In this document: positions 49,942-55,169 of the stretch, in pieces | Numbering within the stretch: position 1 is the stretch's first letter | Layout of the letters: each line of letters opens with the position of its first letter | Sequence record: PP274704.1 | DNA length: 64,000 nucleotides | Strand: one strand, 5' to 3' | DNA from: Escherichia phage ECp13 | Notes under the pieces: generated by a model | The model's database searches: none | Seen by the model: the letters and a program-made list of their open reading frames with translations, nothing else | Told to the model about the DNA's origin: nothing | Position numbers and translations under genes: made by a program

Positions 49942-50267
49942 TGACAGACACACAGCTTTTCGAATATCTTTATTTTTCGCCAAAAACTATTAAAAATAAA
50001 TTGGTGAATCATTTTGAAATTTTGGCAAATAACAACGTCTTGAGCGAATTTTATCCTAAGCAATACAAATTACAAAAAGGTGTATTCAAAGGATGCAGAG
50101 TTTTGTGTACTGCTCCTAATGCAAGATTAATGAATAAAATTCCATATTTTACCATGGAATTTATTGATGGACCTTTTAAAGGACTAATCACCCAAAGTTT
50201 AATGGCATATGATTCTGAGCCATTTTTAATTAAAGAACAGTCTTGGATAAATTTATTTTCTAATTGA
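49938..50267 (+). CDS. hypothetical protein
   Basis: 109 aa from ATG 49938 (ATGA overlap with upstream stop). Confidence 0.5.
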   Translation: MMTDTQLFEYLYFSPKTIKNKLVNHFEILANNNVLSEFYPKQYKLQKGVFKGCRVLCTAPNARLMNKIPYFTMEFIDGPFKGLITQSLMAYDSEPFLIKEQSWINLFSN

Positions 50268-50273
50268 GGTTAT

Positions 50274-50636
50274 ATGAAAGCATATCAAATTCTTGAAGGC
50301 ACACATAAAGGTACTATTTATTTTGAAGATGGTATTCAAGCACGAATTATTGTTTCTAAAACCTTTAAAGAGGACTCTTTTGTAGACCCAGAAATTTTCT
50401 ACGGTTTGCACACCCGTGAAATTGAAATTGAACCACAGCCTACAGTTAAAATTGAAGGTGGTCAGCACCTGAACGTTAACGTTCTGCGTCGTGAAACTCT
50501 GGAAGATGCAGTTAAGCATCCGGAAAAATATCCGCAGCTGACCATCCGTGTATCCGGTTATGCAGTTCGCTTTAACTCTCTGACTCCGGAACAGCAGCGC
50601 GACGTTATCGCTCGTACCTTTACTGAGAGCTTGTAA
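50274..50636 (+). CDS. autonomous glycyl-radical cofactor (GrcA/YfiD-like)
   Basis: 120-aa ORF; C-terminal half carries the glycyl-radical motif [25 protein letters not shown] and matches E. coli GrcA as recalled; T4 encodes a homolog (Y06I) between regB and denV; 3' half uses host-like codons (CTG, CGT, CCG). Confidence 0.8.
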
Positions 50637-50857
50637 TGGCAAAGATAATTATTGAAGGTTCTAAAGATGTGTTAAATGCTTTCGCCGAATGGTTTAGTAA
50701 TTCAGGCGAACAGCAATTTAATGAAGCGTGGACCATGGGTGATATTGATGGAATTTATCCTACGACAGAAATTTCTGTTCAAGGATATGGCATTCATGAA
50801 CCTATTCGTTTAGTTGAATATGATTTATGTACTGGTGAGGAAGTCAAATATGATTGA
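50636..50857 (+). CDS. hypothetical protein
   Basis: 73-aa ORF, ATGA-type coupling to upstream gene. Confidence 0.5.
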   Translation: MAKIIIEGSKDVLNAFAEWFSNSGEQQFNEAWTMGDIDGIYPTTEISVQGYGIHEPIRLVEYDLCTGEEVKYD

Positions 50858-51116
50858 AGATATTAAAGGTTATAAGCCACATACTGAAGAGAAAATTGGT
50901 AAAGTGAATGCTATCAAAGATGCTGAAGTTCGTTTAGGACTTATCTTTGACGCTTTATACGATGAATTCTGGGAAGCACTGGATAATTGTGAAGACTGTG
51001 AATTCGCGAAGAATTATGCTGAAAGCCTCGATCAGTTAACTATTGCTAAAACGAAACTCAAAGAAGCCAGTATGTGGGCTTGTCGTGCTGTGTTCCAACC
51101 AGAGGAAAAATATTAA
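50850..51116 (+). CDS. hypothetical protein
   Basis: 88 aa from ATG 50850 (RBS GAGGAAG). Confidence 0.5.
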
Positions 51117-51394
51117 TGGCTCAATTAAGCGCAGGGTTTGGTTATGAGTATTATACTGCCCCTCGTCGTGTATCTGTTGCTCCTAAGAAAATTCAAAGTC
51201 TTGATGACTTCCAGGAAGTAGTCCGTAAAGCTTTCCAGGACTATGCGCGTTATCTTAAAGAAGATTCACAGGACTGTCTAGAAGAAGATGAAATTGCTTA
51301 CTATGAGCAGCGTCTTGAACAGCTTAAAAACCTACATGAGGTTCGTGCAGAAGTTACAAAGTCTATGAATAAATTGATTAGATTTAAAGAATAA
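51116..51394 (+). CDS. hypothetical protein
   Basis: 92 aa from ATG 51116 (RBS AGAGGA; TAATG overlap). Confidence 0.5.
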
Positions 51395-51396
51395 CT

Positions 51397-51426
51397 GTTT
51401 ACTTTTCCTCTTGACTGTGGTATAAT
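51397..51426 (+). promoter_or_regulatory. early sigma70-type promoter for regB
   Basis: GTTTAC (51397-51402), 18 bp, TGG-TATAAT (51421-51426). Confidence 0.65.
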
Positions 51427-51453
51427 TTTTCTATCAGTTAAGAGGAGAATAAC

Positions 51454-51915
51454 ATGACTATCAATACAGAAGTTTTTATCCGTCGAAATAAGCTTCGTCG
51501 TCACTTTGAGTCGGAGTTTCGTCAAATTAACAATGAGATTCGTGAGGCATCAAAAGCAGCAGGAGTCTCATCGTTTCATCTAAAATATTCTCAGCATCTT
51601 CTTGATCGTGCAATTCAACGGGAGATTGATGAGACATATGTTTTTGAATTATTCCACAAAATAAAAGACCATGTTTTAGAAGTTAATGAATTCCTGAGTA
51701 TGCCTCCGCGTCCTGATATTGACGAGGATTTTATTGATGGGGTTGAATATCGTCCTGGACGTTTAGAAATCACAGATGGAAATCTTTGGCTTGGATTTAC
51801 GGTTTGTAAACCTAATGCGAAGTTCAAAGACCCGTCGCTTCAATGTAGGATGGCAATTATCAACAGTCGTCGTTTACCAGGAAAGGCTTCTAAAGCAGTA
51901 ATTAAAACTCAATGA
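51454..51915 (+). CDS. regB: RegB sequence-specific endoribonuclease
   Basis: 153-aa ORF MTINTEVFIRRNKLRRHFESEFRQINNEIREASK...; length and sequence recognised as T4 RegB. Confidence 0.9.
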   Translation: MTINTEVFIRRNKLRRHFESEFRQINNEIREASKAAGVSSFHLKYSQHLLDRAIQREIDETYVFELFHKIKDHVLEVNEFLSMPPRPDIDEDFIDGVEYRPGRLEITDGNLWLGFTVCKPNAKFKDPSLQCRMAIINSRRLPGKASKAVIKTQ

Positions 51916-51922
51916 GGTAAGC

Positions 51923-52468
51923 ATGAGAAAAGCACTACTCGCTGGTCTATTGGCCATTTCTATGATGGCACATAGCTCCGAGCATACTTTCAGTAATGTC
52001 CAACTCGATAACATGCGTTACGCATATCAATTCGGGGAACAATTTTCTAAGGATGGAAAATATAAAACACACAAAAATATCCACAAGAGCGGATTAGGTC
52101 ATATAATGGCTGCTATTTTATGGCAAGAAAGCTCTGCCGGAGTTAATTTAAAATCTAAACCAAAGCATCATGCCTACGGAATGTTCCAAAATTATTTGCC
52201 GACCATGCGAGCAAGAGTTAAGGAACTTGGTTATAATATGACCGATGCTGAAATAAAAAGAATGTTGAATAAACGGTCCAATTCAGCTTCCTGGGCGTAC
52301 ATTGAACTTTCTTATTGGTTAAATATACATAAGGGAGATATAAGAAAGGCGATATCCTCTTATAATTCGGGATGGAACGTTAAAGCAGGTTCTAAATATG
52401 CTTCTGAAGTCCTAGAAAAGGCTAATTACCTTAAAAATAATAAACTTTTGGAAATAGTAAATGACTAA
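51923..52468 (+). CDS. secreted lytic-transglycosylase-like protein (positional equivalent of T4 vs.1)
   Basis: 181-aa ORF with signal peptide (MRKALLAGLLAISMMAHS) and SLT-like motifs (WQESS...YGMFQ...YNSG). Confidence 0.65.
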   Translation: MRKALLAGLLAISMMAHSSEHTFSNVQLDNMRYAYQFGEQFSKDGKYKTHKNIHKSGLGHIMAAILWQESSAGVNLKSKPKHHAYGMFQNYLPTMRARVKELGYNMTDAEIKRMLNKRSNSASWAYIELSYWLNIHKGDIRKAISSYNSGWNVKAGSKYASEVLEKANYLKNNKLLEIVND

Positions 52469-52802
52469 AATTTTGGTTTTATGTATAGGATTAATTTCAT
52501 TTTCTGCGTTAGCAGATACATCATATACTGAAATTAGAGAGTATGTAAATCGTACTGCCGCGGATTATTGCGGGAAAAATAAAGCATGCCAAGCTGAATT
52601 TGCACAGAAATTAATATATGCATATAAAGACGGAGAAAGAGATAAATCAAGCAGATATAAAAATGATACATTGTTAAAACGATATGCTAAAAAATGGAAT
52701 ACCTTAGAATGTTCAGTTGCGGAGGAGAAAGATAAAGCCGCTTGTCATTCAATGGTTGACCGTTTGGTAGATTCTTATAATCGAGGATTGAGTACTAGAT
52801 GA
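52461..52802 (+). CDS. small secreted protein (positional equivalent of T4 vs)
   Basis: 113-aa ORF with N-terminal signal peptide and four Cys residues. Confidence 0.55.
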   Translation: MTKILVLCIGLISFSALADTSYTEIREYVNRTAADYCGKNKACQAEFAQKLIYAYKDGERDKSSRYKNDTLLKRYAKKWNTLECSVAEEKDKAACHSMVDRLVDSYNRGLSTR

Positions 52803-53278
52803 TTGTAAAATATATCAAGGGCGATATTGTCGCCCTATTTCTTCAAGGTAATATTATTGCGCACGGGTGTAATTGCTTCCACACAATGGGCTCTGGCGTA
52901 GCGGGTCAATTAGCAAGAGCCTATCCCAAAATTTTAGAAATAGATAAAACTACTACCGAGTACGGTTCTCGCGATAAATTAGGCGATATGTCTGTTGTTT
53001 TTAAACATAGTCCTACGGGATTTGGTATATGCTATAATTTGTATACGCAATACGAACCGGGTCCTAATCTTGATTATGGTGCTTTAGTAAACTGCATGAT
53101 AGAATTAAATCTACAGGCAGAAACCCTTTTGTTTAAACCAGTAATTTACATTCCACGCATAGGTTGCGGTATTGCTGGTGGTGATTGGGACAAGGTTTCT
53201 AAATTAATCGACATGTTTACTCCTGATATTGATTTAATAGTGGTGGATTATGAAAGTACATTACCCGCATCCGTTTGA
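52799..53278 (+). CDS. macro-domain protein (predicted ADP-ribose binding or hydrolase)
   Basis: 159-aa ORF; macro-domain signature elements KGDI..., NIIAHGCNCFHTMGSGVAGQL, IPRIGCGIAGGDW. Confidence 0.65.
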   Translation: MIVKYIKGDIVALFLQGNIIAHGCNCFHTMGSGVAGQLARAYPKILEIDKTTTEYGSRDKLGDMSVVFKHSPTGFGICYNLYTQYEPGPNLDYGALVNCMIELNLQAETLLFKPVIYIPRIGCGIAGGDWDKVSKLIDMFTPDIDLIVVDYESTLPASV

Positions 53279-53462
53279 TCCTAAAAACAGAGTGGAAATT
53301 ATTCGTCAATGGGAACGCATTTGCCGTACTAAATGCCCAATTAATAGTCCACATGATGTAAATAAAGACTATATTGGAACATTCGTTGAATATACCTTTA
53401 TTGATAAGAAAGGTCGTAAACAGCACGTAGAAGAATATTGCTTAAAGGTTACATGGTTATGA
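53250..53462 (+). CDS. hypothetical protein
   Basis: 70-aa ORF overlapping the macro-domain gene 3' end. Confidence 0.45.
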   Translation: MKVHYPHPFDPKNRVEIIRQWERICRTKCPINSPHDVNKDYIGTFVEYTFIDKKGRKQHVEEYCLKVTWL

Positions 53463-53665
53463 GCCAAACTAGTATTCTTAAAAATGCACACTGCGAAAAG
53501 TGTGAATGGCCAGTTGTTTTTGCTTTATGTAATGATGAAATGGCTTGTGATTTCGATTATTGGTGCTATTGTTCTAATAAAGGATGCATCAATCATAAAG
53601 GTGAAGGATTTTATTCGGGATTTTATCCTTATCCTGATTTCGTTAAAGAAGGTAAACCGAAATGA
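53453..53665 (+). CDS. small Cys-rich protein (putative zinc-binding)
   Basis: About 70 aa with 10 Cys (CEKCEW...CNDEMACDFDYWCYCSNKGC); start at 53453 or 53459. Confidence 0.5.
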   Translation: MVMSQTSILKNAHCEKCEWPVVFALCNDEMACDFDYWCYCSNKGCINHKGEGFYSGFYPYPDFVKEGKPK

Positions 53666-53835
53666 ATAGTTTTGAGTTACAATATGAAGTGTTACGTGAA
53701 CTTGATAATTTAATTGAACTCGCTGTTAATAAAGGTTTTGCCATTGGAATCGGTCAAAAAGATACTGATCATTTAACTATGGAAATATTTAAGCAAAAGC
53801 GAATTATTTTAAAACTCCTGGAAATTAATATATGA
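53662..53835 (+). CDS. small hypothetical protein
   Basis: 57-aa ORF (below track cutoff) with ATGA coupling at both ends. Confidence 0.4.
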   Translation: MNSFELQYEVLRELDNLIELAVNKGFAIGIGQKDTDHLTMEIFKQKRIILKLLEINI

Positions 53836-54017
53836 GTCTGAGTAAAGAACAAAAAGATAAATTGTTTGAGCTTATCCATGAACTTCTAGATGAGCATACA
53901 GAAGCAAACACCTTTTATGATGAATACGGTCCGCTATCTCCCGAACAGCAAGAAGAATTTGCTGATCGGTTTGATAAGAAAGAAAATGAATTAATAGCTT
54001 ATGTGAATACGCTTTAA
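53832..54017 (+). CDS. small acidic helical protein (member of a repeated ~60-aa family)
   Basis: 61-aa ORF MSLSKEQKDKLFELIHELL... Confidence 0.5.
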   Translation: MSLSKEQKDKLFELIHELLDEHTEANTFYDEYGPLSPEQQEEFADRFDKKENELIAYVNTL

Positions 54018-54026
54018 GAAGGTGAT

Positions 54027-54608
54027 ATGGCGAGTTTAATTTTTACTTATGCAGCAATGAATGCTGGAAAATCTGCTTCTCTTTTGACTGCTGCGCATAA
54101 TTATAAAGAACGCGGAATGGGTGTATTAGTTCTTAAGCCTGCTATTGATACTCGCGATTCTGTCTGTGAAGTCGTTTCTCGCATTGGAATTAAACAGGAA
54201 GCGAATATTATTACGGATGATATGGATATTTTTGAGTTCTATAAATGGGCTGAAGCACAAAAAGATATTCATTGCGTATTTGTAGATGAAGCTCAGTTTT
54301 TAAAAACTGAACAGGTGCATCAATTAAGCCGAATTGTTGATACATATAATGTTCCTGTTATGGCTTATGGGCTAAGGACCGATTTCGCTGGAAAATTATT
54401 TGAAGGTTCTAAAGAACTTTTGGCGATTGCAGATAAACTTATTGAACTAAAAGCAGTTTGTCATTGCGGTAAAAAAGCGATTATGACAGCTCGATTAATG
54501 GAAGATGGAACACCAGTTAAAGAAGGCAATCAAATCTGTATTGGTGATGAAATTTATGTTTCTTTGTGTAGAAAACATTGGAATGAATTAACTAAAAAGC
54601 TCGGTTAG
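54027..54608 (+). CDS. tk: thymidine kinase
   Basis: 193-aa ORF with P-loop (AMNAGKS) and C-terminal Cys cluster; T4 Tk length. Confidence 0.92.
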   Translation: MASLIFTYAAMNAGKSASLLTAAHNYKERGMGVLVLKPAIDTRDSVCEVVSRIGIKQEANIITDDMDIFEFYKWAEAQKDIHCVFVDEAQFLKTEQVHQLSRIVDTYNVPVMAYGLRTDFAGKLFEGSKELLAIADKLIELKAVCHCGKKAIMTARLMEDGTPVKEGNQICIGDEIYVSLCRKHWNELTKKLG

Positions 54609-54650
54609 TGCAAAAGTTATAAATAGGTTTATCTAACTAAAGGGGTATAT

Positions 54651-54863
54651 ATGCTACAATTAACTGAAAAGCAACTTCGCAATCTTACTGTTCTTCAATT
54701 AGATGAAATTCGTAGGGAAGTTGGAAATATCATTTCAGCTTTGCGTCGAGAAGTATCACTCAACCAATCTCCGGCAGACTATACTAGATTGCGAAATTTT
54801 GAAAAATACCTTGATAAAGTTAAGGCCGTGCATCGGCATAAAGTAAATACAGGACAAAAATGA
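54651..54863 (+). CDS. rI.-1: small protein, positional equivalent of T4 rI.-1
   Basis: 70-aa ORF between tk and rI. Confidence 0.6.
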
Positions 54864-54875
54864 TAGGAGGCCTTT

Positions 54876-55169
54876 ATGGCCTTAAAAGCAACGGCACTAT
54901 TTGCCATGCTAGGATTAGCGTTTGCTTTATCTCCACCAATTGAAGCGAATGTCGATCCTCATTTTGATAAATTTATGGAATCTGGTATTAGACACGTTTA
55001 TATGCTTTTTGAAAATAAAAGCGTAGAATCATCTGAACAGTTCTATAGTTTTATGCGAACGACTTATAAAAATGACCCGTGTTCTTCCGATTTTGAATGT
55101 ATAGAGCGAGGCGCGGAGATGGCACAATCATACGCTAGAATTATGAACATTAAATTGGAGACTGAATGA
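54876..55169 (+). CDS. rI: lysis inhibition regulator RI
   Basis: 97-aa ORF with N-terminal signal-anchor (MALKATALFAMLGLAFALSPPIEA); T4 RI length. Confidence 0.88.
   Translation: MALKATALFAMLGLAFALSPPIEANVDPHFDKFMESGIRHVYMLFENKSVESSEQFYSFMRTTYKNDPCSSDFECIERGAEMAQSYARIMNIKLETE

Follow-up and report, generated by a model that had tools for sequence, protein, structure and literature searches.

A stand-alone ALC1-like macrodomain protein of Escherichia phage ECp13, orthologous to T4 Tk.4, is probably an AdfM-type anti-DarTG2 factor

Introduction

What does a T-even-like phage gain from a stand-alone macrodomain protein of its own, encoded by a short gene between vs and tk? The question is raised by a stretch of 64,000 nucleotides from Escherichia phage ECp13 (sequence record PP274704.1; "the window" hereafter means this whole stretch), in which an initial annotation, made from the sequence alone, had placed a 159-amino-acid open reading frame (ORF) at 52799-53278. 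It had read the ORF as a macrodomain protein that might undo ADP-ribosylation or degrade ADP-ribose-derived signals used by hosts in defence. The ORF listing and the matches of the neighbouring genes confirm that the ORF is there and that it lies between vs and tk. We conclude below that it is the ortholog of T4 tk.4, recently named adfM, and that its product probably removes ADP-ribose from the thymidines of phage DNA modified by DarTG2, through a chemistry that would dispense with the catalytic lysine of several of its relatives. DarTG systems stop phages through DNA ADP-ribosylation, and an AdfM ortholog would explain the DarTG2 resistance of the phages that carry it. Both the identity of tk.4 and the idea that its T4 ortholog reverses the action of DarT were already known before this analysis; the remaining interest lies in the Lys-independent chemistry that analogy suggests for T4-type AdfM, in the exchange of the gene between genera as a cassette, and in a conserved hairpin within the gene.

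Identity of the gene

52799..53278, plus strand: tk.4 (adfM) coding sequence, stop codon included; ATG start, 159 amino acids, stand-alone macrodomain protein (ORF listing)

The ORF is 59% identical to T4 Tk.4 (NP_049723; E 6e-71) over the full length of the latter, the two proteins measuring 159 and 155 amino acids, respectively. Window and T4 also have in common the order vs–tk.4–tk.3 and an ATGA overlap between vs and tk.4, and sequence and synteny both make T4 tk.4 its positional ortholog. It is not a chance ORF, given its Pfam score (see below), the 777 homologous proteins found at E<=1e-5 in a protein database search and the tblastn matches to Tk.4 in 2780 of 50,697 phage records. A megablast search with positions 52300-53800 retrieved 736 phage records, nearly all of them from phages that infect enterobacteria such as Escherichia and Shigella; identity reaches 98-99% in the best of these records, and several already bear the annotation "tk.4: phosphatase" or "macro domain protein". 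Indeed, the A1pp/macro match of tk.4 orthologs has been in print since 2006 (PMC1524935), the T4 genome record states of tk.4 that it "contains A1pp phosphatase motif", and both PHROG 335 and RefSeq label the Tk.4-type protein "phosphatase". This label goes back to the former name of the domain, A1pp, and not to an assay.

Macrodomain fold and class

Pfam Macro (PF01661) matches residues 22-136 at 32 bits, above its gathering score of 22 (E 1.3e-7), and the match runs through positions 2-117 of the 118 in the profile. Since structural matches extend over residues ~3-150, Tk.4 is a single-domain protein. An AlphaFold2 model, for which the input was the alignment of homologs without the T4 Tk.4 row, has a predicted local distance difference test score (pLDDT) of 94.2 and a predicted template modelling score (pTM) of 0.89, and model and Foldseek comparison agree on a predicted three-layer alpha/beta/alpha macro fold. 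Foldseek returned 177 matches in the Protein Data Bank (PDB) at E<=1e-3, and the best 50 of these 177 are either macrodomains or designed hydrolases with a scaffold resembling that of a macrodomain. The leading matches are TARG1 (E 2.8e-10, template modelling score (TM) 0.82 on the target), BT1257, Poa1p (E 1.7e-9) and the DarG macrodomains of Thermus aquaticus and Mycobacterium tuberculosis, all with probability 1.0 and TM 0.7-0.84; within this range the DarG macrodomains (M. tuberculosis 5M3I, T. aquaticus 5M31/5M3E) lie at TM 0.74-0.78.

The sequences give a matching picture. A profile of the family, searched against PDB sequences, finds BT1257 (2e-19), TARG1 (2e-17), SCO6735 (3.5e-15), Poa1p (1e-14) and DarG (9e-12 and 3e-10), and reaches the MacroD-like coronavirus nsp3 macrodomain at 4e-3 only; a single-sequence PDB search has Poa1p among its best matches (E 2e-9). 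Among defence-related models, DarG is the sole match in NCBIfam (8.4e-7, 28.6 bits) as well as in PADLOC (3.7e-7). Because of this pattern of Foldseek and profile matches, window Tk.4 is a macrodomain of the ALC1-like (TARG1/DarG/SCO6735) class. The initial annotation had called for a profile or structure search to assign the subfamily, and its reading of a stand-alone macrodomain protein is borne out by Pfam, by the profile and by the predicted fold.

Active-site residues and loops

52871..52873, plus strand: N25 codon, in the HGCNC motif; invariant in 53 homologs and in viral loci
52886..52906, plus strand: MGSGVAG, codons M30-G36, first Gly-rich loop, predicted to bind ADP-ribose (alignment of 53 homologs)
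53048..53050, plus strand: Q84 codon, in the NxYTQ motif, at the catalytic-Lys position (profile-TARG1 and MAFFT alignments)
53162..53182, plus strand: GCGIAGG, codons G122-G128, second Gly-rich loop, predicted to bind phosphate (conservation, alignment)

Conservation was read from an alignment of 53 homologs and, separately, from a set of 81 aligned viral loci. The motifs on which the initial annotation had been built are all in place, GDI at residues 8-10, MGSGVAG at 30-36 and GCGIAGG at 122-128, and both Gly-rich loops are conserved across the 53 homologs, so that neither of the computational refutations named there, absence of a macro fold or loss of the Gly-rich loop on alignment, came about. 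Residues H22, G23, N25, C26, G33, A35, D49, G62, N80, Y82, Q84, P119, G122, G124 and W130 are invariant in this alignment. In the first loop, M30 and G31 reach a conservation of at least 90% beside the invariant G33 and A35, and the loop falls in the same columns as the MGAG/MGKG loop of TARG1 and DarG. In the second, G127 and G128 show this same degree of conservation (at least 90%) beside G122 and G124; this loop aligns with GCGLDRLQW of TARG1, which puts A126 at the position of the catalytic D125 of TARG1.

Two positions deserve particular attention. N25 aligns, by MAFFT, with the Asn of DarG and with N23 of PhiKZ gp104 and, by way of the alignment between BT1257 and SCO6735, with Asn27 of SCO6735; mutation of the equivalent Asn lowers activity in gp104, DarG and SCO6735 (PMC13309987, PMC9411070). 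Q84 occupies the column of TARG1 K84, DarG K80 and the lysine of the FPTK motif in gp104. The Gln is invariant in the 53 proteins and present in 81/81 aligned viral loci, which had been fetched with search patterns free of the NxYTQ motif, and BT1257 and SCO6735 have Gln at this position as well.

Comparison with known macrodomains

All the family-invariant residues of window Tk.4 are found in T4 Tk.4 too, those of HGCNC, NLYTQ and the GxG...W loop among them, although the second loop reads GCGIAGGDW in the window and GAGIGKGNW in T4, and although the two proteins differ to the extent given above while the flanking genes are 97-99% identical to those of T4.

Among the matches in the PDB, SCO6735 of Streptomyces coelicolor and BT1257 of Bacteroides, which match each other at E 3e-54, resemble window Tk.4 in having Gln at the Lys position together with the supporting Asn (Q84 and N25 in the window, the latter equivalent to Asn27). 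SCO6735 is a stand-alone chromosomal macrodomain, whereas window Tk.4 is stand-alone and phage-encoded, and Gly23 of the window protein lies at the position of Val25 in SCO6735/BT1257. The hallmark of the SCO6735/BT1257 subclass is a mobile loop about five residues longer than that of DarG and TARG1, with Lys89/Lys94 aiding the use of DNA substrates (PMC9411070). Window Tk.4 has a 6-residue gap against BT1257 after PGPN, its loop having the length of that in TARG1 and DarG, and because the longer mobile loop is missing we do not file it in this subclass.

Membership in the DarG family was rejected as well. The NCBIfam model (NF048014) gives a score of 28.6 bits where its equivalog cut-off is 250, and is matched over positions 2-142 of 338 only; Gln84 takes the place of the catalytic Lys80 of T. 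aquaticus DarG (FPTK motif); and the 159-residue protein is without the C-terminal DarT-binding domain and has vs and tk.3 as neighbours, with no adjacent darT. What window Tk.4 keeps of DarG is the fold, the class and the Asn equivalent and, presumably, the substrate. TARG1-type catalysis is set aside likewise, as the dyad Lys84/Asp125 corresponds to Gln84/Ala126. Likeness to human TARG1/OARD1 and to yeast Poa1p is found in the KGD N-terminus and the PRIGCG loop, and Poa1p, which is described as a small-molecule phosphatase, also has the HxCNC motif in common with window Tk.4.

PhiKZ gp104 calls for separate comment, as it is a phage-encoded stand-alone macrodomain that goes by the same name, AdfM, has the same anti-DarTG2 role and is the only protein for which in-vitro enzymology has been published under that name (PMC13309987). 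It is not of the same family: gp104 is DarG-like, with the FPTK lysine and a match to M. tuberculosis DarG at E 9e-25, and its homology to the Tk.4 family is seen at the profile level only (hhalign probability 96%). Moreover, gp104 is imported into the phage nucleus, and gp104-like genes occur in 276 phage records versus 2780 for Tk.4-like genes. The name AdfM now covers two subfamilies, a Gln-type (Tk.4) and a Lys-type (gp104), which share their job and their fold class.

Anti-DarT function and proposed mechanism

The function of tk.4 was brought to light by the genetics of T4. In a 2025 preprint on HIDEN-SEQ, tk.4 was the single significant gene depleted on a DarTG2 host; a clean tk.4 knockout was sensitised to DarTG2, the gene was non-essential absent a defence system, and it was named adfM, for anti-DarT factor macrodomain (bioRxiv 10.1101/2025.11.20.689424). 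With these results the proposal that a phage macrodomain could reverse DarT-type DNA ADP-ribosylation, one of three put forward in the initial annotation, finds its support in the T4 ortholog. They also fill a gap, since T4 deprived of adfA and adfN is still resistant to DarTG2 (PMC11257639), from which a further factor was to be predicted. The counter-measures of T-even phages to DarTG are layered, comprising AdfA, AdfN and now AdfM, and the recognition of AdfM is relevant to the choice of therapeutic phages.

As to the chemistry, SCO6735 rescues E. coli from DarT and removes thymidine-linked ADP-ribose (dT-ADPr) faster than DarG does; all of its activity is lost in the Q85A mutant and nearly all in N27S, and it also inhibits DarT via direct interaction (PMC9411070). 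Because SCO6735 cleaves dT-ADPr with the same Gln, hydrolysis by Gln, Asn and water, independent of Lys, is the best-supported mechanism for Tk.4. DarTG2 of the host attaches ADP-ribose to thymidines of single-stranded phage DNA, which blocks replication. In the proposed scheme, the two Gly-rich loops of Tk.4 would hold the ADP-ribose while the bond between ribose and thymine is hydrolysed, giving free ADP-ribose and restored DNA. Gln84 would be held by Asn25 as in SCO6735, in which the Gln positions the distal ribose and a water held by the backbone has been proposed to initiate catalysis. The start of tk.4 is coupled to the stop of vs through the ATGA overlap.

We regard it as probable that the window ORF is an AdfM ortholog that removes dT-ADPr from DarTG2-modified phage DNA in a Lys-independent manner. 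By analogy with SCO6735 the T4-type protein would be an enzyme working without the lysine, and the window allele can be expected to behave like that of T4. Several observations weigh against this assignment: the genetic support consists of a single preprint on the T4 allele, with which window Tk.4 shares no more than 59% identity; the published hydrolysis of dT-ADPr by an AdfM is that of the Lys-type PhiKZ gp104, a member of another subgroup; window Tk.4 has neither the catalytic Lys nor the longer mobile loop with Lys89/Lys94 of SCO6735/BT1257; and its best single-sequence matches include a small-molecule phosphatase, Poa1p. Protection could also be conferred partly or wholly by binding of DarT2 instead of catalysis.

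This last point leads to an alternative in which Tk.4 neutralises DarT2 mainly as an antitoxin mimic that binds and inhibits the toxin, catalysis being secondary or absent. In vitro, DarT is inhibited even by the catalytically dead mutants SCO6735 Q85A, DarG K80A and TARG1 K84A, with the strongest effect for SCO6735 (PMC9411070); AdfA and AdfB, anti-DarT factors already known, are said to inhibit DarT directly; and the exchange of the tk.4 body between genera as a cassette (see below) would fit alleles matched to toxin variants. However, even homologs that have diverged widely keep H22, N25, Q84 and both Gly loops without change, and such invariance of the active site argues for selection on catalysis; nor does the protein, with its 159 amino acids and its match to positions 2-142 of the 338 in the DarG model, contain a counterpart of the C-terminal domain by which DarG binds DarT. 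As the main mode of action toxin binding seems unlikely to us, while as a contribution to protection it is plausible by analogy with SCO6735. The sequence matches with Poa1p, including the shared HxCNC, and the "phosphatase" label of PHROG 335 and RefSeq would suit a housekeeping enzyme, either a Poa1p-like phosphatase acting on ADP-ribose-1''-phosphate or an enzyme that hydrolyses ADP-ribose esters in general, be it Glu/Asp-ADP-ribosylated protein or O-acetyl-ADP-ribose, the more so as the former is a substrate of SCO6735 and TARG1 as well (PMC9411070). We hold this to be quite unlikely: the label was taken over from the A1pp domain name, the match to Poa1p is no better than those to BT1257 or TARG1, and T4 tk.4 is dispensable without defence and is the single gene depleted on DarTG2.

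The two other proposals of the initial annotation, that the protein degrades the signals of Thoeris immunity (glycocyclic ADP-ribose (gcADPR) or histidine-ADP-ribose (His-ADPR)) or that it reverses the ADP-ribosylation of host proteins by the phage enzymes Alt, ModA and ModB, appear very improbable. In their favour one can cite the general point that macrodomains bind ADP-ribose, and the presence 2 kb upstream of a sponge gene of the Acb2/Tad1 family (the vs.4 homolog, 50814-51116). We found no result or paper linking Tk.4-type proteins to Thoeris, and none supporting reversal of the Alt, ModA or ModB modifications. The residue that Alt, ModA and ModB modify is arginine. In the assays of PMC9411070, by contrast, ALC1-like macrodomains act on Glu/Asp esters and on thymidine, and the sole arginine-specific macrodomain that we encountered is of the distinct MavL type (PMC10951314).

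Exchange of the gene body and the intragenic hairpin

52829..53295, plus strand: mosaic segment, tk.4 codons 11-159, a Dhakavirus-type tk.4 body in a T4-type backbone (nucleotide and protein identity)
52818..52836, plus strand: hairpin AGGGCGAT-ATT-GTCGCCCT in tk.4 codons 7-13, 8 bp, GC-rich, loop of 3 nt, tail rich in U (match of a terminator-like scan)

As far as position 52828 the nucleotide sequence is 95-100% identical to T4; identity drops sharply to 42-78% over 52829-53295 and rises again to 93-97% in tk.3. The proteins follow the same course: window Tk.4 is 92% identical to its counterpart in Dhakavirus JS98 and, in this comparison, 57% identical to that of T4, whereas for RegB, Vs.1, Vs and Tk the identity is 97-99% with T4 and 45-69% with JS98. 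Since tk.4 is JS98-like inside T4-like flanks, the body of the gene, a probable anti-defence gene, has been exchanged between genera as a cassette. A second divergent block is seen at 53476-54011, the tk.2-like end of which (~53866-54045) is JS98-like, with 81-95% nucleotide identity.

The 5' junction of the tk.4 mosaic coincides with the hairpin. Its minimum free energy is -12.9 kcal/mol, compared with -4.2 +/- 1.8 kcal/mol in synonymous recodings, none of which was as stable (0/500). T4, JS98, SHP1 and Serratia phage CBH8 have the hairpin too, its pairing preserved by synonymous changes that compensate for each other. In the covariation alignment, 4/8 pairs are changed on both sides and the score of 0.301 exceeds that of the shuffles (0.175; 0/500), a count that is biased upward because a few distant sequences were chosen since they fold at this position. 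Such compensation is seen among CBH8-like phages and in some of the distant lineages; in most of the distant tk.4 homologs examined, the hairpin is missing.

With its U-tract the hairpin resembles an Hfq-binding or terminator module. A 2026 preprint on phage T2 reports that the tk.4 transcript was captured with the host small RNA (sRNA) ArcZ in RIL-seq and that the Tk.4 protein was detected; to connect the hairpin with ArcZ is speculation. The element could be an attenuator or terminator, a site for Hfq or an sRNA, or a recombination junction.

It is tempting to draw these strands together. Tk.4-type AdfM may form a third, Lys-independent subgroup of thymidine-ADP-ribose glycohydrolases, combining the Gln of SCO6735 with the short loop of DarG and TARG1, and may be by record count the main macrodomain type of the phages sequenced, about 10x the DarG-like PhiKZ type. 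The gene body would be traded between T-even genera, its 5' edge being a selected hairpin that serves as recombination junction and/or RNA element (e.g., attenuator, Hfq or sRNA site), and its alleles would be matched to DarT2 variants. Taken as a whole, this picture is tentative, and we consider it rather unlikely.

Gene neighbourhood

50274-50636, plus strand: vs.6 homolog, GrcA-like glycine-radical domain (Pfam Gly_radical, E 2.6e-18)
50814-51116, plus strand: vs.4 homolog, 100 amino acids, Acb2/Tad1 anti-CBASS/anti-Thoeris sponge family (Pfam Acb2_Tad1_hairpin PF24729, E 1.1e-19)
51454-51915: RegB (Pfam REGB_T4, E 1.4e-68)
51923-52468: vs.1, SLT-domain protein
52461..52802, plus strand: vs, valyl-tRNA synthetase modifier, 97% identity with Vs of T4; stop and tk.4 start overlapping in ATGA
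53250..53462, plus strand: tk.3, DUF7202 (Pfam, E 4e-37), overlapping the final 29 nt of tk.4
53438-53665, plus strand: Phage_zn_bind ORF (Pfam)
53662-53835, plus strand: 57-amino-acid ORF, no Pfam match
53832-54017, plus strand: DUF7438 ORF (Pfam), ~69% identical in nucleotides to the tk.2 region of T4
54027..54608: thymidine kinase, tk (Pfam TK, E 1.7e-60)

The genes regB-vs.1-vs-tk.4-tk.3-tk make up a T-even early-gene block, as in T4. The vs.4 sponge gene lies some 2 kb ahead of tk.4, so that several genes of the block are of the counter-defence kind. A scan of positions 50000-55000 found 16 sigma-70-like sites, compared with 18.7 +/- 5.0 in shuffles, and since there is no excess we claim no promoter for tk.4. 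ARAGORN detected no tRNA genes within the whole 64-kb window, where some were to be expected, as T4 has a tRNA cluster no more than about 10-12 kb away from the tk.4 block. Between tk.3 and tk (53438-54017) the gene content is unlike that of T4, and no counterpart of T4 tk.1 is found in this interval. Finally, the vs.6 homolog at the upstream end of the region would be a spare part for pyruvate formate-lyase, in agreement with the T4 annotation.

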